Shown here: positions 34,393 to 52,631 of the stretch, one piece after another | Position numbering within the stretch: the first letter of the stretch is position 1 | How the letters are laid out: each line of letters begins with the position of its first letter | Assembly: GCA_963705115.1 (NCBI GenBank) | Contig: CAVPIX010000002.1 | Span: 11,555-75,554 of the forward strand | Origin: an uncultured delta proteobacterium | GTDB lineage: Bacteria; Desulfobacterota; Desulfobaccia; Desulfobaccales; 0-14-0-80-60-11 | DNA: 64,000 bases | Reading direction: 5' to 3' | Translations under genes and position numbers: made by a program | Notes under the pieces: generated by a model | The model's input: only the letters and a program-made list of their open reading frames with translations | Database searches by the model: none | Told to the model about the DNA's origin: nothing

Positions 34393-35031
34393 ATGGCAAA
34401 CCATCCGTTTTTAGGCCTGGTGGCCTTAGGTCCCGTCGATCCGGACATCCTTCGGAGACTGCGCACCACCCTCGCTAAGTTCCTCAAGCTGCCGGTGCGG
34501 GTGCTGAAACCCAAGCCCCTGCCGGCGCAGACGTATCACTTGACGCGGCAGCAGTATAATTCCACCCAGTTGCTGGAATTTCTCCTGGACCATGTAAAAA
34601 CCAGGGCCCTGCGGGTTTTAGGGGTGACGGCCGGGGATCTTTATATTCCCATCCTGACTTTCATTTTCGGTGAGGGCCTGGTAAACGGCAAGGCTGCCAT
34701 CATCTCCCTGTTCCGTCCCCGGGGTGACGCCGATGGGGTCACACCTTCCCGGACGGTCCTCATGGAACGCCTTATAAAGCTGAGCCTGCACGAATTGGGT
34801 CACACCTTCGGCCTGGGGCATTGCCGCGAAAAGGGGTGTTTAATGGGATTTTCGTCGAATTTGGAAAAATTGGACCAGACAGAAATTGCTTTCTGTGATT
34901 ATTGCCAGGTTTTAATGACGGATTTCTTTCTGGAGCAAGGCTTGCAGCCGCCCCTCAAGCGGTATGCAGAAACTCCTGTACAAGTCGCTTCCAACCCAGG
35001 TTCGGGTAATTCCCATAAACATCGTCAATGA
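34393..35031 (+). CDS. Archaemetzincin-like Zn metalloprotease
   Basis: TFIFGEG, HELGHTFGLGHC...CLMGFS...FCDYC (canonical motif). Confidence 0.9.
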   Translation: MANHPFLGLVALGPVDPDILRRLRTTLAKFLKLPVRVLKPKPLPAQTYHLTRQQYNSTQLLEFLLDHVKTRALRVLGVTAGDLYIPILTFIFGEGLVNGKAAIISLFRPRGDADGVTPSRTVLMERLIKLSLHELGHTFGLGHCREKGCLMGFSSNLEKLDQTEIAFCDYCQVLMTDFFLEQGLQPPLKRYAETPVQVASNPGSGNSHKHRQ

Positions 35032-35836
35032 TCGTCCCTCCGGAAGGCAGGAAGGCTCCCGGAGCGGCTTGCAGCATCCCCAACAGCTTGATGATTTCGC
35101 TCTCGGTCCAGGCGATGTTGCACTGGCCAAAAAGCATCTCTTCCAGATCCCCCTTCAAGTTGGTGGGAGTAACTACAAAGAGCCAGCCCTCACCGTAGGG
35201 ATCGTCATGGGTGATTTGCGGTCTTTCCCGGACCTTGGGATTAATGGCGTCGATGGTCCCGTCAAGGGGCGCCAGAACCTCAGCCTTTTTCCTCTGGCGG
35301 CCCAGGCTCATGAACGGTTCGTTAGCTCTAATTTTTTGGCCGATTTTCGGAAAATCCATCCTGGTGACCGGGCCCAGGAGTTTTTGCGAGAAGTCGTCCA
35401 AGCCGAGACGCACCCGGTCAGCCTTCTCCAGAGCCACCCAGGTGTGGCCCAGATGCAGAAAATTGGAGGTGGGCACTTGAATGCCGAAAATTTCATGCAC
35501 CCGGGGTTGGGGGGGGGCCAGGAAAAAATCGAATTGTTCTTCCAGAAGCTCGTCAAAGGAACACTGGTGGCAGAAATTTGTCTTCATCAACGGGCACTGG
35601 CGGCGTTCCCCGAACCGTTGGTGCATCTTGTTTTCCCACGGCAGCCGCTTTACTGCCTGTGCCGCAGGATCCTTCGCTGACTGTCGCCGGGCCAGTTGTT
35701 TGACCGCGGATTCGGTCATGGCCTGGTCGAATTCGCAGGCCTGGCAATCGAAGTTATTATCACAGAGCTTGAACTGGATCACCCCGGCATCCACCCAGAT
35801 GCAGGATTTCTTACTTTCCATAACTCTCTCTGCCAT
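34955..35836 (-). CDS. GcvH-like protein 2 (Cys-rich N-terminus, lipoyl Lys absent)
   Basis: Start at ATG 35836. CIWVDAGVIQFKLCDNNFDCQAC; LHLGHTW, LGLDDF, APLDG and DPYGEGW; the lipoyl position reads Arg. Confidence 0.85.
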   Translation of the reverse strand: MAERVMESKKSCIWVDAGVIQFKLCDNNFDCQACEFDQAMTESAVKQLARRQSAKDPAAQAVKRLPWENKMHQRFGERRQCPLMKTNFCHQCSFDELLEEQFDFFLAPPQPRVHEIFGIQVPTSNFLHLGHTWVALEKADRVRLGLDDFSQKLLGPVTRMDFPKIGQKIRANEPFMSLGRQRKKAEVLAPLDGTIDAINPKVRERPQITHDDPYGEGWLFVVTPTNLKGDLEEMLFGQCNIAWTESEIIKLLGMLQAAPGAFLPSGGTIIDDVYGNYPNLGWKRLVQEFLHTA

Positions 35837-35986
35837 GATCTTAGCTCCCAGCCTGACAAACCCTGGCGGATTTACCAATGAGCAAGGTTTGCCCAATCCA
35901 CCCTGCCTTCACCCTTCTCCAGGAAGGGTGAAGGCCAGGGAACAGGAGAAACAGCTGCGTTCTCCTGATTTTCAGGTCTCCCTCCT

Positions 35987-36601
35987 TTACTTCACCGGAC
36001 GGATGAGACCCTTTTTCATCAGGTTTTTCAGGAAAAATTCCTGGACCAGGAGCTTCCAGCCCAACTCCTGATAATTGCCATAGACGTCGTCGACGATTTC
36101 GCCGCCGTCAGGCAGGGTGACGCCAATCCTGGTCTCCATCAGGTTCAGCAGGCGGTGCGACTCCTTTTCCATCCAGATGACCGCATCCTCGCCGGTGAGC
36201 AGGTTCTCCAGATTGCGGCGGAGATTGATGGGCTTGACCATAAACAGCCAGCCTTCCCCGTAAGGATCATCATGAATGAGACCAGGGTTTTGCTGGACCT
36301 TGGGGTTGACCTCCTCAATGGCGCCGTCCACCGGAGCCTCAAAGGAAGCCTTTTTCCCCTCCCGGATCAAAGCCAGGCAAAGATGATCCTGAAAGTAGAC
36401 CTTGCCGATCTCCGGCAGCCTGACTTCCTTTGCCAGGCCCAGGAGCTTTTGAGAGAAGTCATCCAGTCCCACCCTTACCAGATCGTCGCCCTCAGGCGCC
36501 GCCCAGGTATGGCCCCGGTGCAGGTAATAATTCTCGGTGGGCACTTGAAAACCGAAAACCTCGCTCATCTGTGACCGTGTGATCTTTTCCTGAGGCATCA
36601 T
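35987..36601 (-). CDS. GcvH-like protein 3 (no Cys-rich domain, lipoyl Lys absent)
   Basis: Start at ATG 36601 after AAGGAGG; LHRGHTW, VGLDDF, APVDG and DPYGEGW; the lipoyl position reads Gly. Confidence 0.85.
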   Translation of the reverse strand: MMPQEKITRSQMSEVFGFQVPTENYYLHRGHTWAAPEGDDLVRVGLDDFSQKLLGLAKEVRLPEIGKVYFQDHLCLALIREGKKASFEAPVDGAIEEVNPKVQQNPGLIHDDPYGEGWLFMVKPINLRRNLENLLTGEDAVIWMEKESHRLLNLMETRIGVTLPDGGEIVDDVYGNYQELGWKLLVQEFFLKNLMKKGLIRPVK

Positions 36602-36677
36602 GACCTGTCCCTCCTTAAAGGACATACTGAAGTTCGATGTTTCAACCTCTGCCACTATCTCGCGGCAGAGGGGACCG

Positions 36678-37583
36678 TTATGCATTCGGAGTGACAGCCA
36701 CCATATGGCTGATGACGGCGTCCCTGGGAACGTTGCAAATCGACGCCACCTGTTTGGGATCAAATCCCAGACAGAGGGCCAGCAGCTGGTTGTAATCGAA
36801 CACCGGGATCTTGTAGCGCTCTTCGCCCAATTGTTCGTTGAGGATATTCTGAACCCTTTCCATGTGCATCAGACAGGTAATGCAGGAGACCGCGATGAAA
36901 TCGGCCTTGGTTTCTTCAAGGATGGCGTCGAATTTCTTTTGGGCGAACTCGATGGCCTGCTCCGGGGTGCTTTTCATAAAGCCGCCGGCCCCGCCGCAAC
37001 AGTCCAGCTCGCGACTAAAGCCGTCCACCTCGGCTCCCAGGGCTTCCACCAGCAGCCGCAGGCCCTTGGGCGCCCGGGGAGATTCCTCAAACCCCACGAC
37101 TTCGCTGGGGAACAGGGTGTGGCAGGGGTACTGCACCACCCCGTGGAGTCCCGTGAGGCTCTTTTTGAGATTCGAGGAAATTTTCTCCGGACCTACTTCC
37201 CGCAAGAGGACCTCCGACACATGGCGCACCTTGGATTTCCCGGTGACGGACCGCCCGGTGGGCTCGAGCAGTTCATTGACGTGGGCCAGTTTTTCCTGGT
37301 CATGGATCATGTGCTCGCGTCCCATGCGCAGGGAACTGTAGCAGGAACCGCACTGGACTACGAAATCACAGCCATGCTGCTCGGCAATGGAAAGGTTCCA
37401 GCCGCTGGTGGCCATCCAGGCCTCCTCGTCGGACGATGGGAAAGACCCGAAGGCCGGACAGCAGACATAGTTGTCGGCATCCACGATGTCAATGCCCAAG
37501 ACCGGCATTGACGCCCGAATGGCCCGCTCCACATCCGGCCGGATGGCAGGGGTGTTACAGCCCGGGAAGAAACATAGTTGCAT
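36678..37583 (-). CDS. hdrB: Heterodisulfide reductase subunit B (two CCG domains)
   Basis: Start MQLCFFPGC at 37583; VCCPAFG, QCGSCY, QYPCH, DCCGGAGG and SCITC. Confidence 0.9.
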   Translation of the reverse strand: MQLCFFPGCNTPAIRPDVERAIRASMPVLGIDIVDADNYVCCPAFGSFPSSDEEAWMATSGWNLSIAEQHGCDFVVQCGSCYSSLRMGREHMIHDQEKLAHVNELLEPTGRSVTGKSKVRHVSEVLLREVGPEKISSNLKKSLTGLHGVVQYPCHTLFPSEVVGFEESPRAPKGLRLLVEALGAEVDGFSRELDCCGGAGGFMKSTPEQAIEFAQKKFDAILEETKADFIAVSCITCLMHMERVQNILNEQLGEERYKIPVFDYNQLLALCLGFDPKQVASICNVPRDAVISHMVAVTPNA

Positions 37584-37615
37584 CTTATTGTCCTCGTGTG
37601 TATGAACTTGCTCTT

Positions 37616-38128
37616 TTATCCCTTGAACATATAGTCGTTTTCGCTGACTATCTGGGTCTGCATGAGCATTTCCTGGAACATGGCCAGTTGCTCCGGGTTT
37701 TTGGTTATGATGGGCAAGGGGGGCAACCCCAGGGAATCGCGCAACTCCTGGTTGGCGCCGGCCGCCTGGGTATAGCCCCGCTTGTAGATCTCCACGATGG
37801 CCGACGGGATCAGGGTCTCGTCGTTTTTGCACTGCCATTGCCGGATGGAGAGGATCATCTCAAAGGGCATGACATTTTGGGGGCACATCTCCTCGCACCT
37901 GGAACAGGAGACACAGGCCCAGGGCGTGTCATCCATGAGGAGATCCTCCTCCAGTCCCAGGATCACCTTCCGAGCCAGATTCCTGACCAGCAGCGGCGGG
38001 TCCCCATGGGAGGCCGGACAGCCGGAGACACAGGTGCTGCAATTGAAACAGTAATGCAGGTTGCCGGTGTTATAGATATCTTTCCACAGATCCTTGGTCG
38101 ATCCTTCTTGCAAGTCCATGATCCCCAC
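37616..38128 (-). CDS. hdrC: Heterodisulfide reductase subunit C (2x[4Fe-4S])
   Basis: CFNCSTCVSGCP and WACVSCSRCEEMCP. Confidence 0.9.
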   Translation of the reverse strand: MGIMDLQEGSTKDLWKDIYNTGNLHYCFNCSTCVSGCPASHGDPPLLVRNLARKVILGLEEDLLMDDTPWACVSCSRCEEMCPQNVMPFEMILSIRQWQCKNDETLIPSAIVEIYKRGYTQAAGANQELRDSLGLPPLPIITKNPEQLAMFQEMLMQTQIVSENDYMFKG

Positions 38129-38131
38129 CTC

Positions 38132-41100
38132 TTATCCGGCAGTTGATGAAAACAAGCTGTCAATGAGTTTGGCGTCAATGACAGCCATCAGTTGCTTGTC
38201 ACTCCAGCCTCTGACCTCAGCCGCATTGTTCTGGCACTCCACCGCGCACATGCCGCAGGCCTGACAGGCTGCCGCATCGATCTCAATGCAATTATCCGCC
38301 TCATTAAAGGATCTCGCCTCAAACGGGCAGATGGGCACGCATCTCTGGCAGCGCACACACAAGGCGTCTTTCACCAGTGAGGTGACCGCAGCCGTGTGCA
38401 CCTCCCGGCGGGACAGATAGGTGTAGGCCTTCTGGGCTGCCGCCTCGGCCTGCAAGAGCACGCTCCTTAAAGGCATGGGCGAATGGGCCGTGCCGGCCGC
38501 ATAGATGCCCACCTTCTGGAATTCGATGGGACGCCATTTGGAATCCGCCTCGGCAAAAAACCAATCTCCGGTTACCGGGATATTGAAGGCTTCGGCCAGG
38601 TGCAGATTGGACTCTTCCGGATCCACGCCGGTGGCCAGAACCACCAGGTCTGCAGGTACCTGCAATTCTTCCTGGAGGACCGTATCCATGATTTTGACCA
38701 CCGGCTTGCCGTCCTCGCCAATTTCCACCTGGGGCTTGTTATCCAGGCTGTAATTGATGAAAATCACCCCGGCGGCCCTGGCTTGGGAGTAATACTGCTC
38801 GTAGAAGCCATAGGTCATGATGTCCCGGTAGAGCATGAAGACCCGGGCTTCGGGATTCATTTCCTTGATCTTCAGGGCATTGCCGATGGCTCCCAGGCAG
38901 CAGATCCGGCTGCAGTAGGGGCGCCCGGTCTTCTCCCGCGACCCCACACACTGGATCATCACCACATTTTCCAGTTCTCCGGGGTCGATGTCGCCGCTGG
39001 CGAGCCCCTGGCGCAATTCCGCCTGGGTCAGGACCGCGTCCGAGGTCCCGTAGCCGTATTCGTCGGCGGCGCCTTCATGCCCGCCGGTGGCCATGATCAC
39101 CGCCCCGTGATGCAAATAGGTGTCATTGCCGCTATCCTTGAAATGCAGCTTGGACTCGAAATCGCCCAGGTTGCCCACGGTTTTCTCAACCTCGCAATTC
39201 AGGTGGACATTGATGTTCTTGTGTTCGAAAACCTTGAGCTTCATATCATTGGCCATGGCCATGGGAGCCAGGCCATCCACCGTCCTCTCCACCCGGGTGC
39301 CGAGATAGCCGCCCAGATGGGCTTCCTTTTCCACCAGATGCACCGGCACCCCCCGTTCCGCCAGGGACAGGGCGGTGTGCATGCCGGCGAGGCCGCCGCC
39401 GATCACCAGGGCGTTCTGGTTGATGGGCAGAGTGCTCACCGAAAGATCCGGCTTAAATCTGAGCTTTTCGATATCCCCTTTGATTTCCCTGGCTGTCCGC
39501 AAGGTCCAGTCCTCGGTGGACGGCTCGGCCAGGCCTTTCCTGGCCATGCCGAACAGATCGAAAATCTCCACCATGGAGGAGTTGAAGCCGGCCTTCCTGG
39601 CTTCATTCTTGAGATGCCGCCGGTACATGAAAGGGTGGCAGGCCCCGATGACCAACCGGTTGCATTTGGACTTGCCCAAAACATCCTCGAGGACCGCCTC
39701 GCCATCGGCCATGCACATGGAATCGATGACCTGGACCGCGCCCACGCCCGGGTAGCGTTTCAATTCGGCGCCCAGGAGCTCGTAATCGAGCCCTTCCGCA
39801 CCAGGCTTTTCCCCGCATTTGCACAGGGCCACCGAGACCAGGGGCATTTCCCGCCGATGGCTGGTGGGTTCGGGGATTTCCTCTTCCTGCACCTTGTCCA
39901 GGCCCAGGGAAGCGAGGAATTTGGTGGCCTCTCCCGCCGCGGCGATACCGCTGGACACGGCCTCGCTGATATCCGTGAGTCCCATGAGCGAGCCGCAGAG
40001 AAACAGGGCGGGCTTGCCCTCAACCCTCACCTTGCTGGCCTCTTCGGTGGCGATCAGGCCCCGCTCATCCAGGGGGGCGTTCACCAGGCCGGCCATTTTT
40101 ATATGGGTCTCATAGGGCATCTGACCTGTGGACATTACCACCAGGTCATAATCCTGCACATGGAACTCGTTGGTCTCGGGATCGATATAACGTATGGCCA
40201 GACTACCGTCAGGCTTGGCCATCACCCCCTGCACCCGGCAGCGGATCAGGTTCACCCCATGTACGTCCACGGCCTCGTCCCGGTACTGTTGGAAGCCTTT
40301 GCCGAAGGTCCGCATATCCATGTAAAAAATGGTGGTGTCCACCTCCGGCCCGCCTTTTTCCTTGGCCAGGACGGCCTCTTTCAGGGCAAACATGCAGCAT
40401 ATGGAAGAACAGTAATCTCTTCCCTGCCGCCGGTTGCGCGAACCCATGCACTGGATCCAGGCAATGTTTTTGGCGGGCTGGCCGTCGGACGGCCGTCTGA
40501 TGACGCCGTCCTGATAGGTGCCGGAACCGCTCAGCATCCGCTCAAAGGCGAGGGAGGTGACCACATCCGGCGACACGGCATAGGACTTGGCGTCCTCGTA
40601 ATCCCGGGTGTTATAGAGCTTGACCCCGGAGGCCAGGATAAGGGCGTGGACCTCTCTCGTCTCAGCAAGGTCCTGGGCCTCCAGGTTGATGGCATTGGTG
40701 GGACAAACCTTGAGGCACTCACCGCAGCTGGTGCAAGCCTGTTTGTCGATGAGCAGCATCCTCGGGGTATTGTGGGGCACCGGCTGGTAGATGGCCTTGC
40801 GCGTGGTCAGCCCCTGGTTGAACTCATCTGGGACCTCCACCGGGCAAACGTCCAGGCATTCCCCCATCTCGTTGCAGATGGCCGGGTCGATATAGCGGGC
40901 CTTTTTCAGCAACTCGACCTTATAATTCCCCGCATCCCCTGTTACCGAGGTGATCTCCGTAAAGGGCAGGATCTCGATATTTTCGTGAAACAGGCTTTTG
41001 CGCATACAGTACTGCGAGGCATACTCGCGGCCCACCAGGGGCAGCATTCTGCACATGCCGCAATGATCCGTGGGGAATTGGTAATCAAGTTTGGCCAGGA

Positions 41101-41233
41101 TGCCCCCCATCTGGGGGGAATCGTCGGTCAATATGACCTTGTAGCCCGATTCGGCCAACTCTATGGCCGCCTTGACCCCGGAAATGCCGGCGCCGGCTAC
41201 CAGGACGGTTCCTATAGGCTTTTTCTCCGCCAT
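38132..41233 (-). CDS. hdrA: HdrA-like flavoprotein with two FAD modules (tandem, QmoA/QmoB-like arrangement)
   Basis: GAGISG and GGGLAG dinucleotide motifs; two IQC-x-GSR...YCS-x-ICC motifs; internal CKCG; ferredoxin motifs. Confidence 0.88.
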   Translation of the reverse strand: MAEKKPIGTVLVAGAGISGVKAAIELAESGYKVILTDDSPQMGGILAKLDYQFPTDHCGMCRMLPLVGREYASQYCMRKSLFHENIEILPFTEITSVTGDAGNYKVELLKKARYIDPAICNEMGECLDVCPVEVPDEFNQGLTTRKAIYQPVPHNTPRMLLIDKQACTSCGECLKVCPTNAINLEAQDLAETREVHALILASGVKLYNTRDYEDAKSYAVSPDVVTSLAFERMLSGSGTYQDGVIRRPSDGQPAKNIAWIQCMGSRNRRQGRDYCSSICCMFALKEAVLAKEKGGPEVDTTIFYMDMRTFGKGFQQYRDEAVDVHGVNLIRCRVQGVMAKPDGSLAIRYIDPETNEFHVQDYDLVVMSTGQMPYETHIKMAGLVNAPLDERGLIATEEASKVRVEGKPALFLCGSLMGLTDISEAVSSGIAAAGEATKFLASLGLDKVQEEEIPEPTSHRREMPLVSVALCKCGEKPGAEGLDYELLGAELKRYPGVGAVQVIDSMCMADGEAVLEDVLGKSKCNRLVIGACHPFMYRRHLKNEARKAGFNSSMVEIFDLFGMARKGLAEPSTEDWTLRTAREIKGDIEKLRFKPDLSVSTLPINQNALVIGGGLAGMHTALSLAERGVPVHLVEKEAHLGGYLGTRVERTVDGLAPMAMANDMKLKVFEHKNINVHLNCEVEKTVGNLGDFESKLHFKDSGNDTYLHHGAVIMATGGHEGAADEYGYGTSDAVLTQAELRQGLASGDIDPGELENVVMIQCVGSREKTGRPYCSRICCLGAIGNALKIKEMNPEARVFMLYRDIMTYGFYEQYYSQARAAGVIFINYSLDNKPQVEIGEDGKPVVKIMDTVLQEELQVPADLVVLATGVDPEESNLHLAEAFNIPVTGDWFFAEADSKWRPIEFQKVGIYAAGTAHSPMPLRSVLLQAEAAAQKAYTYLSRREVHTAAVTSLVKDALCVRCQRCVPICPFEARSFNEADNCIEIDAAACQACGMCAVECQNNAAEVRGWSDKQLMAVIDAKLIDSLFSSTAG

Positions 41234-41243
41234 AATCCCGCTC

Positions 41244-42374
41244 CTATTTGACCTGACCGGTCACTTCCATCAACTCATCTGATTTGAAGACAGCCATGGG
41301 CTGTTCTTCCTCAAGAGACCGTCCTGCCTGATAGTTGAACCGGGCCTGAGTCTTGTCGGCGCAAGTTCTGAACAACGGCATCAGATCAATGTCATTGGGG
41401 CAGGCGCTGGTGCACTGACCGCAGCCGACACACATGAGGCTCATGTGGGTCATGCGGACCAGGTGATAGAACAGGGTGTCGTTGGGCAGCTTCAGCGCCC
41501 CGCTTTGATCGGCCCACAGCATGTATTGGTCGCCAGTGTGCCGGAAGGTGTCGGTAACGAAGACGCATTCCTTGCAGTAGCACACCGGGCAGGCCACCCG
41601 GCAGTTGTAACAGTTGATACAGGCGGACAGTTTGTCGGCCAGCGCCTCAAAGTTGCTGGTCTCATCCCGGAATTCAGCAAATTTCTTATCCCTGGCCTCG
41701 GTGCGGGCCGCCATCAGTTTCTTCACCGCTTCGTCCCGCCCGGCCGGAGCCGCACCCGATTTCAGGCCCGATTTTTCCAGGGCTTGCTTGCCTTTGGAAG
41801 TAATGGCTTCGATGAAGACCGCGCCATTGCCCGCGCCCAGGGAGCACAACCTCATATCCACCTGGTCAGCCGTGGGGAATTCGCAGATCTGGCAGGCGCC
41901 GCAGATGTCGACATCCCCCATGGCGGTCTTGCCGGCCTGGGCGTTTTCCAGGAAGGACTCGGAGGTCCCGCCCTGCTCCTGGAATTTGGCAAAATCGGTA
42001 TTCTCATAGCGGCCCAAGCAGTCCACGCTCATCAGCAGGACATCATCGAGGGCCACCTGCTTTAACTTGGCCAGTTCCACCACGGCGCGAATCTCGCAGG
42101 GGCGCAGGACCATGACCAGCCTGCGGCCGGAGGGCCGAGCGGTCAGCGAAGAGGCAATCTTGGCGCCGCTCACCGCCGCTATGGGGGCAAAAGGATCCAC
42201 CCGGTCGGTATATTCAGGGGAGGTGATCAGAGAAAGCCGAACCCCCTTCTTGGGTTGCGCCATGGGCACCAGGACCCCATCAACCGCGCCCTTTTCCAGC
42301 ATGCCCTTGAAAAAGGCGCCCAGTTTCGTATTCATCTCGTCTTTCTGAAAAGACAGTTGCGCATAGTTAGCCAT
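41244..42374 (-). CDS. FdhB/FrhB-N (FlxD-like) iron-sulfur protein
   Basis: RPCEIRA, SVDCLG, CGACQIC, CINCYNCRVACPVCYC and CVGCGQCTSACP. Confidence 0.8.
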   Translation of the reverse strand: MANYAQLSFQKDEMNTKLGAFFKGMLEKGAVDGVLVPMAQPKKGVRLSLITSPEYTDRVDPFAPIAAVSGAKIASSLTARPSGRRLVMVLRPCEIRAVVELAKLKQVALDDVLLMSVDCLGRYENTDFAKFQEQGGTSESFLENAQAGKTAMGDVDICGACQICEFPTADQVDMRLCSLGAGNGAVFIEAITSKGKQALEKSGLKSGAAPAGRDEAVKKLMAARTEARDKKFAEFRDETSNFEALADKLSACINCYNCRVACPVCYCKECVFVTDTFRHTGDQYMLWADQSGALKLPNDTLFYHLVRMTHMSLMCVGCGQCTSACPNDIDLMPLFRTCADKTQARFNYQAGRSLEEEQPMAVFKSDELMEVTGQVK

Positions 42375-42393
42375 GTCCGTCCTCTCCGTGTCC

Positions 42394-42822
42394 TCAGATT
42401 GCCATTTGAGCCAAGGCCCGCAGCGGGCTTGGTCCTAAGTGCCTCAATTTTTTGGTCATCTCGTCCGCGACTTCTTTCAGCATGGTGCCCTCACTGGCGG
42501 CGATCCACCTGAGCCAGAAACGCTGTTCATCGATGCCGTACTGTTTCAGGATCTCGGTGAGGTTGGCCACCCGGCGCCGGGCCTTCAGGTTGCCGTTGAT
42601 ATAATGACAGTCCCCCGGCCAGCAGCCGCCGATGAGGACGCCGTCCGCGCCGTTCAGAAAGGCCTTGATGACGTATTTCGGGTCCACCATGCCGGTGCAC
42701 ATAACCCGGATGATCTTGAGGTTGGGCGGGTACGCCAGGCGCGAAGTGCCGGCCAGGTCGGCGGCAGTGAAGGTGCACCAGTTACAGAAAAAGGCTACGA
42801 TTTGGGGTTCTAACTCGCTCAT
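42394..42822 (-). CDS. mvhD: MvhD-like [2Fe-2S] subunit
   Basis: FFCNWC, RVMCTG, GADGV and GCWPGDCHY. Confidence 0.93.
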   Translation of the reverse strand: MSELEPQIVAFFCNWCTFTAADLAGTSRLAYPPNLKIIRVMCTGMVDPKYVIKAFLNGADGVLIGGCWPGDCHYINGNLKARRRVANLTEILKQYGIDEQRFWLRWIAASEGTMLKEVADEMTKKLRHLGPSPLRALAQMAI

Positions 42823-42825
42823 CGC

Positions 42826-45800
42826 CTAGGCTCCTTGTTGAAATAAAAGTCCGTCGATTTCGGCAAAAATCTGCTTATCGGTGAAGTGTCTCACCTTGGC
42901 GGCGCCGCTGGGACAAGCACCGGAGCAGCTTCCACATCCTTTACAGATGGCGCTGTTGACCTCACTGATGCCCCCATACTCATTGAACTCGATGGCCGTA
43001 TAGGGGCAGAGGCCGATACAGAGTTGGCAACCGACGCAGATGTCCGGATCAATGCCGGAGATCATGGGCGGGATCTCCACCTGACCCGCGGAGGACAGCG
43101 CCAGGCATTCCGCCGCGGCCCCCTTGGCCTGGGCCACCGTGTCCGGGATGTCCTTCGGTCCCTGGCAGGTCCCGGCCAGAAAAACACCGCTGGTGGGGGT
43201 GGATACAGGCGCCAGTTTCGGATGCTGCTCCTGGAAGAAGCCGTCCTGACCGATGCCGATACCGAATTTGCGCATGACGTCGGTGGCGTCGGGTCTCGGT
43301 TCCATGGCGGTGCAGAGGATGACCATCTCCACCGGGACTTCGATCAGGCGGCCGGAGAGGGTATCCTCCCCCTTCACGGTGAGGATGCCGTTGGCATCTT
43401 CGGTGATGGAACCGGCCTTGCCGCGAATCATCTTGACGCCTTCGGCCTGGACCTTTTTGTAGAATTCCTCGTAGCCCTTGCCGAAGCAGCGCATGTCGAT
43501 GTAGAAGTTGTAGATTTCGGTGTCGTGCCCGCATTTGTCTTTCAGCAGATGGGCATACTTCAGGGCATACATGCAGCAGGTGCGGGAGCAGTATTCGTGG
43601 TAGTTCTTGTCCCGGCTGCCGATGCAGTGGAGAATGGCCACGCTCTTGGGCGGGTCCGTGAACTTCAGGGGATCTTTCAGATCACGCTTCAGGAGCTTGC
43701 CCGCGGTGGGCCCGGTGGCGTTGCTGAGCCGCTCGAACTCCAGGTTGGTAAAGACGTTCCGGTACTTGCCGTAGCCGTACTGGGTCATCTTGGACGGATT
43801 CATGGGGTCAAAGCCCGTGGCGATGATGATGGAGCCGACGTCGATGGTTTCTCTCTTGTCAACCATCTCATGGTCAATGGCCTTGGCCTGGCAGGCATCC
43901 ACACAGAGCCTGCATTCGCAGCAGCCGCCGCAATCCACGCAGCGGGCCGCCTCCGCCTTGGCCTGCTCCTCACCGAACCCCAGTTCCACTTCCTTGTAAT
44001 TGTGAATCCGGTCAGCTACCGGCAGGAGGGGCATCTTGGCCCGGGGTGCAGACTTGACCTCTTTCGGGATGGCCTTCCAGTTGCTGCCGGCGGGCTTGGG
44101 CGGTCTGTTTTCCGCCAGATCCTCGCCCAGCAGGTATTTTTCTATGGAGATGGCCGCCTGCTGGCCTGCGGCGATGGCGTCCACCGCGATGGAGGGCCCG
44201 GTGAACAGGTCGCCGCCGGCAAAGATGCCTGGGTAGGTGGTCTGGAAGGTCACCGGATTGGCCACCACCGTCCCCCACCTGGATAGCTCGATCCCTTCCG
44301 TGCCTTCCAGGAAACTGCTGTTGACGTGCTGGCCGATGGCCGGGATAATCATGTCGCAGTCCACGTCGAATTCCGAACCAGCCACCGGCACCGGTCTCCT
44401 TCTGCCGGAGACGTCCGGTTCGCCCAGTTCCATCTTGATGCAGCGGAGCCCCGTAACCTTGCCGTTTTCGGTGAGGACGGCCAGTGGAGCCACCAGCAGT
44501 TCGATCTTGATGCCTTCTTCCTCCGCGGCCTTGACTTCATGCTTGGAGGCCGGCATCTCGTCCCGGCTCCGCCGGTACAGCATGGTCACCTCGGAGGCGC
44601 CTTGCCGCAAAGCCTCCCGGGCCGAGTCGATGGCCGTGTCGCCGCCGCCCACCACCGCTACCTTTTTCCCGGTCTTCACCGGTTCCCTGCGGTTGAGCAT
44701 GCCGAGATAATCGACCCCGTGCACGACGCCTTCCGCATCCTCGTTTTCGATCTTCATCTTCATGCTGCTCTGGGCGCCGGTGGCCAGGTAAACGGCCTTA
44801 AAGCCCTCATTGAAGAGACCGGCGATGGGGCGGTCCTTGCCGATGGAGACGTTCAGCTGGATATCCACACCCAGCTTCTTGATGTAGTTGACCTCCCGTT
44901 CGAGAACCTCGGGTGGCAGGCGGTAGTCCGGAATGCCGGCCCGGAGCATGCCGCCGACAAAGGGGGCCCCTTCGAAGATGGTGGGATGATAGCCTTTTTT
45001 GGCCAGGAAATAGGCAGCGGTCAGGCCGGCCGGACCCGCGCCGATGATGGCCACCTTCTCGGTTTCCGGCTGCTTGTCGATTTCCGGCACCGGCAGGGTG
45101 TCCCAATCCACCTGATCCGCGGCAAACCGCTTCAACTGGCAGATGGCCAGGGGAGATTCCACCTCTTTCCGGCGACATTGCCCCTCACAGGGAGCGGGAC
45201 AGATGCGCCCCAGGGAGCCGGGCAGGGGCATGGTCTCCATGATCACCTTGAGTGATTCCTCGTACCGGCCTTCCCTGATGAGGGCGACAAATCCCTGGAT
45301 ATTGATACCCGCGGGGCAGTTCTGCACGCAGGGGCCCCGGTCGTATTTTTCGATGGCGTAGCGCACCGGCACCGCCTGGGGGAAAGAGATATAGATGGCC
45401 TTGCGCATCTTGGTGCCCGCGTCCCATTCGTTGGGCGACTCCACGGGACAGACCTTGGCGCAGTCGCCGCAGCCGGTGCAGTTGGTCTTCACAAAGCGGG
45501 AGCGCTGATTGACGTTGACCTTGAAGTTGCCCACAAAGCCGCTGACGCTCTCCACCTCGGAGTTGGTCATCAGATTGATGTTCTTGTCCTGGCCCACGGC
45601 CACCATTTTCGGGGTGCCGATACAGGCGGCGCAGTCCAGGGTGGGGAAGGTCTTGTCGTACTGGAGCATGTGCCCCCCCACGGTGGGCTGCCGCTCCACC
45701 AGGAAGACCTTGTTGCCGGAGCTGGCGATGTCCAGGGCCGCCTGCATGCCGGCGATGCCCCCACCCACCACCAGGGTGTTGGGGTTGACCGAGAAGGTGC

Positions 45801-46209
45801 TCGGGTAAAGCGCGCTCTGGTTCTTGACCCGCCGCAGACCGGCCCGGATCAGGACAATGGCCTTGGCCGTGGCCTCTTCCTCGCTTTCCGTCACCCAGGA
45901 GCCGTGCTCCCGGACACAGACCATGTGGAAGGCCCGGTAGGGATTCAACCCGGCCCTCTGGCAAGCGGCCCGGAAGGTCTTTTCGTGCATGCGGGGCGAG
46001 CAGGCGGCCACCACCACATGCGACAGGTTTTGATTTTTGATTTCTTTTTCAATGAGATCCTGCCCCGGGTCCGAGCACATAAACAGATAGTCGTTGGCCA
46101 CGATGACATCCGGGAAGGAGGCCGCATACTCCGCCACATCTTTCACTCTCACCTTGGAGGCGATGTTGATCCCGCAGTGGCAGATAAAAAAACCGATTCG
46201 CTCAGACAT
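42826..46209 (-). CDS. hdrA: HdrL-type protein: HdrA with inserted GltD-like NAD(P)H:flavin oxidoreductase
   Basis: CHCGINI, ACSPRMHE and GGGIAG; insert from CVQNCPAG through GAGPAG, GGGDTA and FAGGD; then HCIGSRD...YCSRTCC and a C-terminal ferredoxin. Confidence 0.88.
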   Translation of the reverse strand: MSERIGFFICHCGINIASKVRVKDVAEYAASFPDVIVANDYLFMCSDPGQDLIEKEIKNQNLSHVVVAACSPRMHEKTFRAACQRAGLNPYRAFHMVCVREHGSWVTESEEEATAKAIVLIRAGLRRVKNQSALYPSTFSVNPNTLVVGGGIAGMQAALDIASSGNKVFLVERQPTVGGHMLQYDKTFPTLDCAACIGTPKMVAVGQDKNINLMTNSEVESVSGFVGNFKVNVNQRSRFVKTNCTGCGDCAKVCPVESPNEWDAGTKMRKAIYISFPQAVPVRYAIEKYDRGPCVQNCPAGINIQGFVALIREGRYEESLKVIMETMPLPGSLGRICPAPCEGQCRRKEVESPLAICQLKRFAADQVDWDTLPVPEIDKQPETEKVAIIGAGPAGLTAAYFLAKKGYHPTIFEGAPFVGGMLRAGIPDYRLPPEVLEREVNYIKKLGVDIQLNVSIGKDRPIAGLFNEGFKAVYLATGAQSSMKMKIENEDAEGVVHGVDYLGMLNRREPVKTGKKVAVVGGGDTAIDSAREALRQGASEVTMLYRRSRDEMPASKHEVKAAEEEGIKIELLVAPLAVLTENGKVTGLRCIKMELGEPDVSGRRRPVPVAGSEFDVDCDMIIPAIGQHVNSSFLEGTEGIELSRWGTVVANPVTFQTTYPGIFAGGDLFTGPSIAVDAIAAGQQAAISIEKYLLGEDLAENRPPKPAGSNWKAIPKEVKSAPRAKMPLLPVADRIHNYKEVELGFGEEQAKAEAARCVDCGGCCECRLCVDACQAKAIDHEMVDKRETIDVGSIIIATGFDPMNPSKMTQYGYGKYRNVFTNLEFERLSNATGPTAGKLLKRDLKDPLKFTDPPKSVAILHCIGSRDKNYHEYCSRTCCMYALKYAHLLKDKCGHDTEIYNFYIDMRCFGKGYEEFYKKVQAEGVKMIRGKAGSITEDANGILTVKGEDTLSGRLIEVPVEMVILCTAMEPRPDATDVMRKFGIGIGQDGFFQEQHPKLAPVSTPTSGVFLAGTCQGPKDIPDTVAQAKGAAAECLALSSAGQVEIPPMISGIDPDICVGCQLCIGLCPYTAIEFNEYGGISEVNSAICKGCGSCSGACPSGAAKVRHFTDKQIFAEIDGLLFQQGA

Positions 46210-48526
46210 GAAGCCCCTCCTGAGAAAGCCCCATTACAGCCCCGATATTTTTTTTGCCGGTTTTGGCAATGGTATCCGTCAGATCAACCGATTGCAGCAG
46301 CAGCTCGGCGACGTCCTGAACCTTGATCAGGTTGCTGACGCCCTGTTTGGCGATGGCCTCATTGAGAATGCGTATGCAATACGGGCAGGCGGTGGCGATG
46401 ACCTCAGCCCCGGTGGCCAGGGCCTCTTTGAGCCGCGTTTCCCCAAGACTCTCCTGGCCGACCCCGTCTTTCCAGGGGCCGCCGCCGCCACCGCCGCAGC
46501 AGAAGCTCCGCTCCCGGTTATTCTGCATTTCAATCAGGGTGACGCCCGGTATGGCTTCCAGGATGCGCCGGGGTTTGTCATAGAGGCCGGAATGCCTGCC
46601 GAGATAGCAGGGATCATGGTAAGTAACTTTGAGGCCGAGGCTGTTGACGGGCTTGAGGTCGCCCGCCCGGATGAGTTCATCCAGGAGCTCCACGGCGTGA
46701 ACCGTGGTTATGTCCTTCAGCCCTTCATACCTTTTCTTGAAGGAATCAAGACAATGGGGCGAGATGGTCAGGATTTTATTGGCCCCGGCCTCAAGAAACA
46801 TCTCGGTATTCTTCTTGGCCAGATCTGCGGCCACGTTTTTGGCGCCGATCTTATCGGCCAGGTCGCCGCAGCAATTTTCCTTGGCGCCCAGCGTGCCAAA
46901 AGAGACGCCGGCATGATTGAGCAGGGTCAAAAGGGCCAGGCCGGCCTTTTGGCTGCCTTTGGCGGCGTTGGTGTCATAGGCCGTGGTGCAGCAGGTGAAC
47001 AGGCAGTATTCATGCTCCTGGTTATACGCGGGCAGCTCGTTGCCCTTGGCCCAATCCAGGCGCTTTTCCCTTTGGCCCTGCCAGGGATTGCCTTCTTTTT
47101 GCAGACTTTGCACCACATGATTAAAAGATTTCGGCATCAAGCCGGCCTCCGCCACATGGCTGCGCACGGATTTAACCATGTCAACCAGGCCGATGCCCCG
47201 GGGGCAGCTTTCCACGCAACTATTGCAGGTAGTGCAGGTCCAGGAGGCCTCATCCACGGAGACGTTGTTGGGCCGGTCCAAAGCCACATCCCGGAGGACT
47301 TTCCGGGGACTGTAGCTGGAAATTTCGCTGTAGGGGCAGACCCCGGTGCAGGCGCCGCACTGCATGCAGCTCTGGAAATTCTCCCCGATGTCATGTTTGA
47401 CCATGGCCAGATCAACCTGGGATTCCCGCAGCGCCTTTTGCTTCAGCGTGGTCAGGAAAATGGCCAGGGGCCGGTACATCAGATGGGAGAGCTTGCCGAA
47501 GGGAATCATCAGGACCAGCATGCTGGCGGCGATGCCCACATGGATGACGTAAACGGTGTAGGTCATGATGGGCAGGCCAAGGAGCCGCAGGAAATGGACC
47601 ATGATGCCGGTGGCTGCCACCGTGATAATCAGCACCAGAAAAAACACATCGGTAAAATCCGAATACCGGTGAAGATTCTCTTCCTTTTTGAACCAGCGGC
47701 TGTAGAGCATGGTGGTGGCGGCAAACATCAGGGCGATGGTGGCGTAATAGCCCAACAGGCGGGTCCAATGCCAAAAGGGATGGACAATATCGGTCTGAAA
47801 TTCCGACAGGTAGGCCATGACCAGAATTTCCATGGACACCCACCCGGAAAACAGTAAGATATGCCGCCACCAGGCGCTGCCCGGGCCGGTGCCGCATTTG
47901 CGCCAGCGTTTCTGGGTGAAATAGTTAAGGAAGAACACCGGCGCCTGGGTCAGGAAAAGATAGGGCGGTATCTTGGTGCCCTGCATGATCTTGCGATACA
48001 TGTGAAAGGCATTGGAGAACAGCATCAGGAAGATCAAACCCACCATGATCTGGTCGCCCAGGTGAATCGTGTGCACCGGCGCAAAGGTGGTGAGTTCCAC
48101 CCGGTCGGTGACCACCGGCCCCCGAAAGATCAGGAGCAGGGCGACCACCAAGAAGAATACGCCGAGAAAAGCCCCAACCTCCCATTTCGGCGAGGCATAA
48201 AATCTCTTGGCGAGCCCGGTCCAGTCATACTGGGTCATGAGCCAGCGCCGGGTGGCCATCATGGTCTCGGCGGGTTCCGCGCCCCGGGGGCAGTCGGTGT
48301 TGCAGGTGCCGCAATAATAGCAGAGCCAGGGTTCTGGAGATTCCAACAGCTTATCCCGCAGGCCGAGTTGGAGGTAACGATAAATCTTCCGAGGAAACGT
48401 GTTGTCCCCGGTGGACAAGGGACAGGCGGAGGCGCAGTTGCCGCATTGGAAGCAGGCCTCCATGTCCCTGGCCCCGAGCTTCTTGACCTCGCTGTACAAA
48501 TCAGGGCTGATACTGTTTTTGTTCAC
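46202..48526 (-). CDS. QmoC-like (ferredoxin + heme-b-type membrane domain) fused to an HdrD-like ferredoxin-CCG module
   Basis: CFQCGNCASACP and CYYCGTCNTDCP; TM region with His residues (HILL, HFLR, HVGI, KLSHL); CMQCGAC, NCCG, YHDPC, FCCGGGGG and TACPYC. Confidence 0.85.
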   Translation of the reverse strand: MNKNSISPDLYSEVKKLGARDMEACFQCGNCASACPLSTGDNTFPRKIYRYLQLGLRDKLLESPEPWLCYYCGTCNTDCPRGAEPAETMMATRRWLMTQYDWTGLAKRFYASPKWEVGAFLGVFFLVVALLLIFRGPVVTDRVELTTFAPVHTIHLGDQIMVGLIFLMLFSNAFHMYRKIMQGTKIPPYLFLTQAPVFFLNYFTQKRWRKCGTGPGSAWWRHILLFSGWVSMEILVMAYLSEFQTDIVHPFWHWTRLLGYYATIALMFAATTMLYSRWFKKEENLHRYSDFTDVFFLVLIITVAATGIMVHFLRLLGLPIMTYTVYVIHVGIAASMLVLMIPFGKLSHLMYRPLAIFLTTLKQKALRESQVDLAMVKHDIGENFQSCMQCGACTGVCPYSEISSYSPRKVLRDVALDRPNNVSVDEASWTCTTCNSCVESCPRGIGLVDMVKSVRSHVAEAGLMPKSFNHVVQSLQKEGNPWQGQREKRLDWAKGNELPAYNQEHEYCLFTCCTTAYDTNAAKGSQKAGLALLTLLNHAGVSFGTLGAKENCCGDLADKIGAKNVAADLAKKNTEMFLEAGANKILTISPHCLDSFKKRYEGLKDITTVHAVELLDELIRAGDLKPVNSLGLKVTYHDPCYLGRHSGLYDKPRRILEAIPGVTLIEMQNNRERSFCCGGGGGGPWKDGVGQESLGETRLKEALATGAEVIATACPYCIRILNEAIAKQGVSNLIKVQDVAELLLQSVDLTDTIAKTGKKNIGAVMGLSQEGLHV

Positions 48527-48571: not shown

Positions 48572-48587
48572 AGCAAGACACATGCCA
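48572..48587 (-). promoter_or_regulatory. sigma54 (-24/-12) promoter of the hdr operon
   Basis: Minus strand TGGCAT-GTGTC-TTGCT, a consensus match about 45 bp upstream of the start. A TGT-N11-ACA site lies at 48652-48668. Confidence 0.8.
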
Positions 48588-49228: not shown

Positions 49229-50027
49229 ACGGATAAAGGGGGTTTGGGAAACAGGTTGAACTAATTCACTAAATTGATTTTATTATGAAATTGGGTGTTG
49301 ACATAATTAAGACTTTGGGGGCACTTTGGGGTCTGAAAATAATTAATGGACACTTTTTGGACAACCAAAATGCCCCCCTTGATATCTGTATCAAAATGTT
49401 CTTTTTTTCTATGAATAAAGCAAACTGCCGGGGTGTATGCTGGAAATGGGGCCGGATATCTTGAACCAGGACGTCTCACGGTTTCCACCCATAGCGGCCT
49501 TGGTTTATGCTATGTCTTATTTCTTCCTCTACAAACCGATGCCGTTCCCGGGAGAATCCTGTCATACGGGCCAAATGGCTGGATGGCTGCCCGATTTTTC
49601 GAGAAGCTAAATTATGAATGATCGTGGTTGGGGCAAGTCGCAATATATCTAAATAATATCGAAACCTCTCAGCGGAGATTACAAATGCCAGATAGAGGGC
49701 AGTGAGCACCACATCCGCCCCTGTTCAAATAGTCGACTATTTGATCAAAGTAAAGATCAGAGTTTATCATCCTGCCCTGCGTCCGACTTTCTTTTTTCCC
49801 TTGCCGAATTGTATATGTCAATTCCCAATATTTGACCTACAAACACGCCACCATTGTTACCAGGGCCCACAACCGAGTCGCATTAAGTTGCTCGTTTTTT
49901 TCTTGGTCTTGGATGGTTAAGTCTGCTATTGTGCCAAATACCGCGTCCAATCATCCAACAACTTTCCTCATCTAAAGCGCCAAGGGCTACGGATAGCCCT
50001 GGCGTTCCTAAGGAAGGGGGTCAGGAT

Positions 50028-51098
50028 ATGCTGAAGAAATGGTTTATCGTTTTCTGCGCTCTGTGGTTTGCTTTAACTTGGGACACCGGTACGTCTGTGG
50101 CGCAAAGGACCTCACCAGACGGCCTGCAACTAAGTAATTTTAAAGTTACCCCTATGCAGGCGCAGGTTGGGGACCAAGTGCAAGTATCTTTTGTCCTAAC
50201 AAACACGACGGCCCACCCCATCACCATCAGTCCCGAATCTGGCGTCTTTGTGGGTGCGAGGTGGAATTCCACAACCGATGCGAACAACCGAGATTTTAGT
50301 CATAGAAACAGAGGAAGATTCTTGAAACCTGGGGACAAGGTCAAGATGGAGGCAACCAGAAAGCTCGATGCGGCGGGCACCTGGAGGTTCTGGCCCGCCT
50401 ACAAGGTCAACGGTCACTGGGGGCCTTTCAGGTGGAATGAAATCGTTGTCGAAGTGGCAGAAGCGACTACGGGAACCCCACGGCGGGATGATGGCGTCTG
50501 CCCGGTGCACGGCGTAAGGATGGAACCCATAAATCTGCGGGTTATTTACGGAATGCCATCCCAGAAAGAATTCCTAGAGATGCGCGCTGGTAAGTCGCTT
50601 TTTCCCTATGGCCGTGACTATGTTCTGGGCGGTTGTGTGGTGAAGCCGGAGAAGTTCCGGAAAGGCTTCCTCTGCCCAGAGTGTGTGAAGGCGCGCAATG
50701 CCTGGATCGCGTCACAAAAACACGGGGATAAAATTTCGCGAGCCAGCCAAGCTAGCCTCGAGGAATTCTTTGCAATCGTCAACAGCCGGGATGTCGATGG
50801 GGCCATGAAGTCAATGGCACCAGGCATGCTTAAGACGCCGGAGCAACGTGAGGCCTGGCGGAGACAGCTTGCTGCCTTTCGCTCAATCCATGTAATTGAT
50901 GTAGAACCGGCGAACGTGAACGACTGGAGCAGCACCCGCCATATCTTCAGAGTCACGCTGGAAGCATACGTCAAAGAAGAGCCCGGCGCCCCAATCCCAT
51001 TTTTTGGCTGGCACGATAACCCAAACGTCCGCTGGATCACGATGGAGCTGAACAACAATCACCGCTGGGTTGTCGCTGGAATCGCAACTGGCCCGTAG
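50028..51098 (+). CDS. Exported three-domain protein (Ig-like, small Cys domain, NTF2/DUF4829-like C-terminus)
   Basis: ATG 50028 after AAGGAAGG; signal peptide; beta-sandwich pattern; CPVH...IYGMP...LGGC...CPEC; C-terminal WVVAGIATGP. Confidence 0.7.
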   Translation: MLKKWFIVFCALWFALTWDTGTSVAQRTSPDGLQLSNFKVTPMQAQVGDQVQVSFVLTNTTAHPITISPESGVFVGARWNSTTDANNRDFSHRNRGRFLKPGDKVKMEATRKLDAAGTWRFWPAYKVNGHWGPFRWNEIVVEVAEATTGTPRRDDGVCPVHGVRMEPINLRVIYGMPSQKEFLEMRAGKSLFPYGRDYVLGGCVVKPEKFRKGFLCPECVKARNAWIASQKHGDKISRASQASLEEFFAIVNSRDVDGAMKSMAPGMLKTPEQREAWRRQLAAFRSIHVIDVEPANVNDWSSTRHIFRVTLEAYVKEEPGAPIPFFGWHDNPNVRWITMELNNNHRWVVAGIATGP

Positions 51099-51363: not shown

Positions 51364-52631
51364 TGACCTGCCATCAGTAATTGTACCAAGTTTTAAGTTA
51401 GGATGGGGTTCAAGTCAAGCCAGAGATTCTGGCGGAGCCTAGCGTAGCCAGGATCTCTGGGAATCGGCCGTATGGCCTTAGGTGGCAGTGGCCGATAATT
51501 CAAAGCACTATGAGGCCTGATCGTGTTGTATGCTTTCCGCCAACGCTCGATCAGAATCTTGGCCTCTTTCAAGGTGTAGAAAATCTCCCCCTTGAGCAAC
51601 TCATCCCGCAGCTTCCCATTGAAGCTCTCGTTGTAACCATTCTCCCAAGGACTGCCAGGTTCAATGTAGAGCGTGTTGACTCCTACTCGGCTTAACCACT
51701 CCCGAACCACCTTGGCCGTAAACTCCGACCCGTTGTCCGACCGGATATAGTCTGGTGGGCGCCTTGACACAAACAGCTCCGTCAACCGATACAACACCGC
51801 ATCTGCATCAAAACGCCGGGATACCTCGATGGCCAGGCATTCCCGCGTGTACTCATCAATGATGGAGAGCATACGGAAAGCCTTGCCATCGTGTGTCCGC
51901 GCCATGACGAAGTCATAGGACCAAATATGGTCCGCCCAGCACGGCCGGAGACGAACACAAGATCCATCGGTTAACCACAATCTGCTCCGCTTTGGCTGCT
52001 TCTGGGGCACCTTCAGTCCTTCCTGTCGCCAGATCCGTTCCACCCGCTTGTGGTTTACTCTCCAGCCCTCTCGATGGAGCAAGGCAGTGATGCGGCGATA
52101 GCCATACCGGCCGAAATGCGTGGCATAGCCAATGATGGCAGCAGTCAGCCCCACCTCGTCATCAGGCTCGGTGGCTTGGTAACGCTGGGTCGCACGGGGT
52201 TGCCCAATCACCCCGCAGACCCGGCGTTCCGACACCGGCAGAGCCTTCCGGATATGCTCTAGGCTTTGCCGGCGACGGGTCGGGCTTAGAAGTTTCCCCC
52301 TACCGCCTCCTGGAGGATCAGTTTGTCCAAGGTCAGATCCGCCACCGCCCGTCTCAGCCGGGTATTCTCTTGCTCTAAAGCCTTGAGCCGCTTGGCCTGT
52401 TCTATCTTTAAACCCCCTTACTCCCGGCGCCACCGATAGAAGGTCTGTTCGGCAATACCCAAAGTACGGCAAACCTGGGCCGCCGTCTGCCCTTGGGCCA
52501 GGGCCACCTCTGCTTCCCGCAGCTTTCCAATGATCTGCTCCGGCGAATAACGCTTCCTACTCATCTCCCTGCCTCCCTTCGATCCATTACTCTAAACAAT
52601 ACTTATGGATCAGTTTTCGGGGGGCAGGTCA
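51364..52631 (-). mobile_element. IS3-family insertion sequence (~1268 bp); orfA carries a nonsense mutation
   Basis: Terminal IRs TGACCTGCC... at both ends. orfA from ATG 52564 (MSRKRYSPEQII...) has TAA at 52418-52420 in place of the EYGG Tyr. Slippery G-GGA-AAC at 52292-52298. orfB is an rve-type integrase (WSYDF, RSDNGSEF, ENGYNESFNG). Confidence 0.93.

Follow-up and report, generated by a model that had tools for sequence, protein, structure and literature searches.

Analysis of a 64,000-nucleotide stretch from an uncultured delta proteobacterium of the order Desulfobaccales (assembly GCA_963705115.1, contig CAVPIX010000002.1; hereafter, the window) identified a reverse-strand gene (46202..48526; GTG start, 774 amino acids) whose product combines, in one polypeptide, a QmoC-type quinone-linked membrane cytochrome and an HdrD-type iron-sulfur module. 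Since this fusion always heads the same large operon of heterodisulfide reductase (Hdr) genes, its most likely role is to connect a soluble flavin complex electrically to the quinone pool of the membrane.

An earlier note on this DNA, made from the letters, had read the product as a ferredoxin, a membrane part with His residues, a second ferredoxin and two CCG domains. Pfam, NCBIfam and the motif positions all agree that this chain is real. A motif scan found four CxxCxxCxxxC motifs, at residues 25, 69, 387 and 431; the hydrophobic helices span approximately residues 113–346 and are followed by CC motifs at residues 512, 552 and 676 and by one CxxC motif at 714. The N-terminal HdrC-like ferredoxin domain (48272..48469; approximately residues 20–85; Cys 25, 28, 31, 35, 69, 72, 75 and 79), matched by Pfam Fer4, is followed by a six-helix membrane domain of the NarI/HdrE/QmoC type (47489..48190; approximately residues 113–346), delimited by hydropathy, model helices and His conservation. 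The second HdrC-like 2x[4Fe-4S] domain (47192..47383; residues 382–445) matches Pfam Fer4_8 (residues 385–445, 7.8e-21) and HdrC proteins of the PDB (E 2e-19 in a phmmer-type sequence search). The C-terminal part matches Pfam CCG twice (E 4.6e-31, best stretch 634–718). CCG domain 1 (46727..47014; C508, C512, C513...C552, C553...S589-P-H591-C592) corresponds to the distal non-cubane site in a variant form, and CCG domain 2 (46361..46627; C640...C676, C677...C714xxC717) to the proximal site in its canonical form. All these domains are on the reverse strand.

The NCBIfam qmoC model (positions 6–358 of 360) matches residues 11–356 with 229.6 bits, and residues 379–745 match TfrB, HdrC, GlpC, TmcB, HmcF and DsrK-type models, which bears out the earlier proposal that a QmoC-type module is joined to an HdrD-type one. 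All 28 Cys residues and His 152, 155, 222, 286, 311, 329 and 348 are invariant across 26 full-length orthologues, and the Cys residues of the N-terminal ferredoxin are invariant also in QmoC relatives. The GTG start is preceded by the ribosome-binding context AAGGGGAAGAT, conserved across orthologous loci.

Membrane domain and predicted structure

The AlphaFold2 model of the fusion, calculated from a 128-sequence alignment, has a mean predicted local distance difference test score (pLDDT) of 92.1 and a predicted template modelling score (pTM) of 0.80. It contains six long membrane helices, and the linker is modelled confidently. Structural comparison with VIA-align matched residues 138–756 to EtfD of M. 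smegmatis (9OJN, chain A; Z 37.8), residues 505–768 to HdrB (Z 22.7, root-mean-square deviation (rmsd) 2.6 over 240 residues), residues 1–102 to HdrC (5odc_C; Z 11.2, rmsd 2.4) and residues 132–353 to NarI (1q16_C; Z 8.9); the Foldseek results agree with these matches. The anatomy is thus that of an EtfD/EMO-like body, with five helices and HdrC-like and HdrB-like domains, preceded by an additional helix and a further HdrC-like ferredoxin, which is cytoplasmic. The added N-terminal ferredoxin and helix are the contribution of QmoC (cf. PMC3333476).

Loops rich in Lys and Arg at residues 177–221, 276–291 and after 346 fit the positive-inside rule. The topology is N-in, C-in with six helices, and both iron-sulfur arms are therefore cytoplasmic. 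According to the alignment, H222, H329 and H348 are common to the fusion and the canonical QmoC of the same genome, and the His pattern fits a b-haem domain of the NarI/QmoC type. H329 and H348 are 19 residues apart; the distal and proximal haem ligands in the last helix are H223 and H241 in EtfD (PMC13083937) and H233 and H251 in SaEMO, the EMO of Syntrophus aciditrophicus (bioRxiv 10.64898/2026.08.18.745454). This spacing resembles that of the EtfD and SaEMO ligands, and together with the conservation of the His residues it leads us to infer a proximal and a distal haem, of which the proximal one would be ligated by H222 and H348 and the distal one by H329 together with H311 or H152/H155.

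The operon, its host and its distribution

The gene order fusion-HdrL-MvhD-FdhB-like-HdrA-(HdrC)-HdrB, usually followed by GcvH-like genes, was found in every locus with enough DNA (approximately 20 loci from two classes). Among the genomes of the order, an HdrL orthologue (at least 78% identity) is present only in those bearing the fusion, the other genomes having only paralogues of 45–50% identity. The two genes are thus present or absent together, and the link of the fusion to the soluble Hdr genes of the operon is strict. As the earlier note had stated, the fusion is the first gene of the operon: approximately 1.4 kb on its 5' side contain no same-strand gene, and its stop overlaps the HdrL start by 8 nucleotides.

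The following genes are on the same strand as the fusion and were assigned with Pfam, and HdrL and the HdrA-like gene also with NCBIfam. HdrL (42826..46209; 1127 amino acids) is an HdrA with an inserted GltD/NfnB-like NAD(P)H module. It is followed by MvhD (42394..42822; PF02662, 5.8e-51), an FrhB/FdhB-like Fe-S flavoprotein subunit (41244..42374), a double HdrA-like flavoprotein of 1033 amino acids (38132..41233), an HdrC-like subunit of 170 amino acids with Fer4_8 and Fer4_9 (37616..38128), and HdrB (36678..37583; TIGR03288, 5.2e-63, and motifs). The HdrC gene is invisible in a plain list of open reading frames (ORFs) because the HdrB ORF (36678-37838) over-extends across it. The excess of approximately 85 codons is Pro/Gly/Arg-rich off-frame sequence, and Met86 at 37583, taken here as the start, is the probable true one.

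Two extended GcvH-like genes (34955..36625, reverse strand; PF01597), syntenic in most loci, form the end of the operon. Their products carry conserved N- and C-terminal extensions, and phmmer placed a Lys of the window's copy (GKKAS) opposite the lipoyl-lysine that GcvH of T. thermophilus carries. A role of these proteins as a lipoyl dithiol shuttle between HdrB and HdrD was considered and dropped: the lipoyl-lysine column is occupied by K, H, R, N or M in orthologues, and lipoylation is therefore not a conserved property of these proteins.

A sigma-54-type promoter sequence, TGGCATGTGTCTTGC (48573..48587, reverse strand; GG-N10-GC, TGGCAT-N5-TTGC), starts 61 nucleotides before the fusion start codon. 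Of 29 orthologous loci, 10 have a similar motif 48–93 nucleotides upstream, and two others have it at -184 and -227; since it is near the start in only these 10, a sigma-54 promoter universal to the family was rejected. A sigma-54 activator gene (33002-34027, forward strand), which together with a sensor kinase covers 30746-34027, lies beyond the far end of the operon. Upstream of the operon are an rve-family transposase (51393-52472, reverse strand) and an ORF with no Pfam match (49929-51098, forward strand); with a stretch of lower GC content (0.465) at 49–50 kb, the operon borders mobile DNA.

The host genome (4.0 Mb, 97% complete) contains, according to a profile search, dsrA, aprA and a canonical qmoC (442.3 bits), the latter approximately 3.6 kb from aprA on another contig; the host is therefore a sulfate reducer. 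The syntrophic role proposed earlier gained no support from these genes or from the relatives, which are Desulfobaccales and Desulfocapsaceae metagenome-assembled genomes (MAGs), with nothing specific to syntrophs.

A search of a large protein database found more than 100 full-length fusion clusters (at 90% identity) that are 61–85% identical to the fusion, with Desulfobaccales, "Syntrophobacteraceae", "delta proteobacterium" and Desulfocapsaceae MAGs as the named sources. Only one full-length fused representative, plus fragments, was present among 1.84 billion representatives at 50% identity, and the family is therefore narrow. A sample of 300 genomes from across the phylum showed the full-length fusion only in the window's own family. 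Its distribution is patchy: within the order, 22 of the 83 genomes have it, as does one of seven other species of the same genus. GTDB species genomes add MAGs of Desulfocapsaceae, Desulfopila and Desulfobulbaceae, which belong to a different class; in four such loci (L050, L054, L055 and L062) the fusion is 63–72% and HdrL 77–84% identical to the window's copy. The high identity across classes together with the patchiness within the order and the genus suggests that the operon has spread as one block by horizontal transfer.

In two loci (L023 on G368:C38 and L063 on G337:C7), the sequence of the fusion, HdrL and HdrA is broken by several in-frame stops or changes of frame. The genome G337 has one intact and one degraded operon copy; the degraded copies are either pseudogenised or poorly assembled.

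Origin of the fusion and relation to known systems

Among unfused proteins, the C half is closest to soluble HdrDs of approximately 390 amino acids (43–46% identity), which occupy the first position in HdrD-HdrL-MvhD-FdhB-HdrA or HdrD-HdrA-MvhD-FdhB operons. In a maximum-likelihood tree of the HdrD domain (109 sequences, quick search, midpoint-rooted), the 23 fused sequences form one clade (SH-like approximate likelihood ratio test (SH-aLRT) 99) nested in the soluble HdrDs (supports 99, 96 and 97), and 45 of 46 HdrF/EMO-like representatives, in which an HdrD domain is linked to a transmembrane (TM) part, are placed away from it. The HdrF-like representatives match the qmoC model only in its membrane part (positions ~140–320) and have no N-terminal ferredoxin.

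The N half is 41–51% identical to QmoC-like subunits encoded after HdrL-like/QmoA and QmoB genes, and only 25–28% identical to the canonical QmoC of its own genome, of which it is a paralogue. Its closest unfused relatives (46–51% identity) are encoded in three Qmo-like operons (L027, L028 and L030, from the genomes G284, G197 and G029), where the first gene encodes an HdrL-type protein (an HdrA with a GltD-like NAD(P)H insert) and the next two are QmoB-like and QmoC-like; aprA was not found within the 19.5 kb fetched around them. The nesting of the HdrD half in soluble HdrDs and the similarity of the N half to QmoC indicate that the HdrD of an existing soluble operon acquired a QmoC module by grafting. 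Judged from these sequences, the simplest history is that this happened separately from the HdrF/EMO fusions. In a few MAGs (G312, G370 and G311) the gene is split or frameshifted, which either fits this history or reflects assembly noise.

QmoC is the subunit of the QmoABC complex reportedly described by Pires in 2003. It consists of an HdrC-like domain and an HdrE-like dihaem b domain and is reduced by quinols (Ramos 2012, PMC3333476). Like QmoC, the fusion has an HdrC-like 2x[4Fe-4S] domain at its start and then a b-type cytochrome domain of six helices, and its gene lies together with those of HdrA-type flavoproteins and an MvhD module. Unlike QmoC, it scores 229.6 bits (192.9 in the genome search) against the NCBIfam qmoC model NF038018, below the curated equivalog cut-off of 300 bits, which the real qmoC of the genome exceeds with 442.3 bits; it carries a 400-amino-acid HdrD module found in no described QmoC and has the extra invariant His 152, 155 and 286. 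Whereas qmoC is encoded with qmoA and qmoB beside aprBA, the fusion gene sits with HdrL, MvhD and HdrACB. No solved QmoABC structure was among the PDB matches in the sequence and structure searches, which is no proof that none exists.

With HdrF of Desulfobacterium autotrophicum (PMC2702500), SaEMO and EtfD, the fusion has in common a single chain with a NarI-like membrane domain, two cubane clusters, two CCG/NCB domains and the xPH(C/G) His, as well as the fold (9OJN, Z 37.8), and it probably likewise joins a cytoplasmic flavoprotein to menaquinone. These proteins, however, have five helices, with the N terminus in the periplasm and no ferredoxin at that end, whereas the five-helix core of the fusion stands behind a ferredoxin and one more helix. 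Their genes lie beside etfAB or glpAB, and the fusion gene beside HdrL, MvhD, FdhB-like and HdrACB genes in all loci. The HdrD domain of the fusion belongs to the soluble-HdrD clade and not to theirs, and its distal-site ligands (CC...CC...SxHC) differ from both solved forms, EtfD and SaEMO.

In HdrDE of Methanosarcina and in DsrMK of sulfate reducers, an HdrD-like module of the catalytic type is likewise placed on a dihaem b subunit exchanging electrons with quinone or phenazine. These systems consist of two separate subunits and have no QmoC ferredoxin arm, and catalysis, established there, is conjectural for the fusion. DsrK of the host genome has a single CCG domain and no motif matching SPHC, and is uninformative for a comparison of the His residue. 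The soluble HdrD-HdrL/HdrA-MvhD-FdhB loci of Desulfobacterota (PMC2702500) have the same gene order, with an SPHC-type HdrD (43–46% identity) first; there HdrD is soluble, whereas in the fusion it is anchored in the membrane through the QmoC module.

Literature searches on HdrF, QmoC/HdrD fusions, HdrL and QmoABC structures found no paper describing a QmoC-HdrD fusion, and this fused form appears to be undescribed. The "HdrC-QmoC fusion" reported in Archaeoglobi is simply QmoC and not a QmoC-HdrD fusion. In current annotation the protein is named [quoted passage not shown] (NCBI) and "Fe-S oxidoreductase" or "QmoC" (JGI). It is related to known kinds of proteins, namely the membrane-bound HdrD-like proteins and the Qmo complexes.

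Role of the HdrD arm and alternative explanations

Relative to the pattern CX31-39CCX35-36CXXC, which occurs twice in such proteins, CCG domain 1 of the fusion has Ser589 where the first Cys of CXXC would stand, and an additional Cys512, while CCG domain 2 is canonical. The motifs FTCC (C512-C513) and SPHC (S589-C592), seen in the earlier note, are present; the view that they make the domain partly degenerate did not stand. As the ligand set is invariant across the orthologues, the first CCG domain is a conserved, family-wide variant rather than a decaying one. In an alignment of 109 HdrD-like relatives, the Cys residues of CCG domain 2 are invariant in all groups, and at the distal site Cys512 with Ser589 was found in 42 sequences, Gly512 with Cys589 in 34, Gly512 with Ser589 in 30, and Cys512 with Cys589 in none. 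Cys512 is thus accompanied by Ser589 in 42 of 42 cases and never by Cys589, which, the sequences being related, is a pattern and not a statistical test. C512 apparently stands in for the first Cys of CXXC, in a ligand swap that would keep five Cys residues at the distal site. These combinations suggest that, besides the two solved variants, bacterial HdrD and HdrF proteins have three or more sets of cluster ligands.

According to phmmer, S589-P-H591-C592 of the fusion aligns with C581-P-H583-C584 of M. smegmatis EtfD, and the position of His591 is His in 108 of the 109 fused, soluble and TM-linked relatives. In the cryo-electron microscopy (cryo-EM) structure of EtfD, the CCG domains hold a linear [3Fe-4S] and a non-cubane [4Fe-4S] cluster, both shielded from solvent; His583 fills the substrate site and completes the coordination of the proximal cluster, "making it non-catalytic" (PMC13083937). 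In SaEMO, H534 is reported to occupy the coenzyme M-binding site, and the clusters carry electrons from ETF to the haems (bioRxiv 10.64898/2026.08.18.745454). H591 aligns with the EtfD His at a non-catalytic cluster and is nearly universal, and a role of the HdrD arm as an electron wire is at least as likely as catalysis. By analogy with the two solved proteins, we consider, with moderate confidence, that the arm is an electron-entry wire rather than a catalytic disulfide site; the latter, as judged from the sequence, is possible but less likely.

Several observations weigh against the wire and against the membrane coupling proposed below. In the HdrD arm, ten or eleven Cys residues have remained invariant. 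Among them are C553, the "supernumerary" Cys that is Thr in MsEMO, and the bridging C592, which is Gly in SaEMO, and the arm is therefore closer to a catalytic Hdr than either solved wire. The soluble SPHC-type relatives sit in operons without HdrBC, where a module that only conducts has no obvious end point. Haem binding and the quinone site of the fusion are predicted from His conservation and the fold, and all traced members of the family come from MAGs.

These features of the HdrD half could also be explained by a true second membrane-bound disulfide (or trisulfide) reductase, as the earlier note had proposed. It would exchange electrons with menaquinol via the haems like HdrDE and DsrMK and, with HdrB, would provide two thiol/disulfide sites, forming a loop that couples the quinone pool to bifurcation. 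Consistent with this are the retention of at least ten invariant Cys residues in the two CCG domains, with both CC pairs and the bridging equivalents C592 and C717, the restriction of C512 to proteins with S589, which suggests that a fifth ligand was kept by a swap, the match to the HdrB fold, and the first position of soluble SPHC-type HdrDs in Hdr operons without HdrBC. In addition, NCBIfam matches the HdrD half best to TfrB, a protein with an NCB domain that is regarded as catalytic (bioRxiv 10.64898/2026.08.18.745454). However, H591 is equivalent to the substrate-site His of EtfD and to the one reported for SaEMO, the operon already encodes a canonical HdrCB, and no dithiol carrier is evident, the GcvH-like genes having no conserved lipoyl-lysine column. 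In this HdrB both CCG motifs are canonical (CGSC and CITC), with a methanogen-like CXXC containing small residues between the Cys. A second disulfide reductase site is thus doubtful.

It is very unlikely that the fusion is an ordinary enzyme of the HdrF/EMO/EtfD type, for example an ETF:menaquinone oxidoreductase, which adjoins the Hdr operon by chance and works independently. EtfD is indeed the best match in both the structural and the PDB sequence searches, and the layout of TM, HdrC-like and HdrB-like parts is common to HdrF of D. autotrophicum (PMC2702500). Membership in this group is nevertheless largely refuted by the placement of the HdrD domain apart from nearly all TM-HdrD representatives, by the N-terminal ferredoxin and helix, which those representatives lack, and by the neighbourhood: no etfAB or glpAB was found in 34955-48526 or in the flanking ORFs scanned, the fusion stop overlaps the HdrL start, and synteny and co-occurrence with HdrL are strict. 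The earlier note had named a described HdrF-type protein, acting independently of the other operon products, as the case that would speak against it; since the fusion lies outside the HdrF/EMO clade, this is not what we found. It is hardly credible that the fusion is a product of misassembly or frameshifting, or a gene in decay. Copies that are split or contain stops do occur in a few MAGs (G311, G312, G368, G370 and the second copy in G337), but such an origin is refuted by the number of independent intact copies, with a single ORF in more than 100 clusters (90% identity) and 26 independent full-length loci with invariant cofactor ligands, and the linker between the halves is modelled confidently.

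We propose, again with moderate confidence, that the fusion is the subunit that anchors a complex of HdrL, MvhD, the FdhB-like subunit, the double HdrA, HdrC and HdrB in the membrane and couples it to quinone. Electrons would pass between menaquinol/menaquinone at the haems and the flavins of HdrL and HdrA by two cytoplasmic routes. One would be the QmoC-type 2x[4Fe-4S] arm, docking HdrA-type subunits as in QmoABC, and the other the HdrD arm with two cubane and two non-cubane clusters, which would take electrons from a flavin/Fe-S partner as in EMO-ETF. Flavin-based bi- or confurcation in this complex might thus link NAD(P)H (via HdrL) with a low-potential carrier (ferredoxin, for instance), the disulfide reduced by HdrB and the quinone pool. 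If the HdrD arm is a wire, the canonical catalytic site would be HdrB of the operon.

A bolder version, which we regard as unlikely, is that one cytochrome b domain serves two arms, a Qmo-type arm to HdrA-like flavins and a catalytically active HdrD site, the latter forming with HdrB a thiol/disulfide (or DsrC-type) loop that couples menaquinol oxidation to bifurcation. [quoted passage not shown]

In summary, the fusion is of moderate interest for specialists in anaerobic bioenergetics. It adds the CC...CC...SxHC variant, which is also present in a large group of soluble bacterial HdrDs of so far putative function, to the distal non-cubane site, whose variability was highlighted by the 2025-2026 structures of EtfD and EMO. 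The family is a natural construct in which QmoC is covalently tied to HdrD and genetically tied to HdrL, HdrA, MvhD and HdrCB, and is therefore a defined target for purification and cryo-EM of a membrane-bound Hdr supercomplex. The fusion bears on how sulfate reducers join soluble bifurcating modules of the HdrA type to the menaquinone pool.

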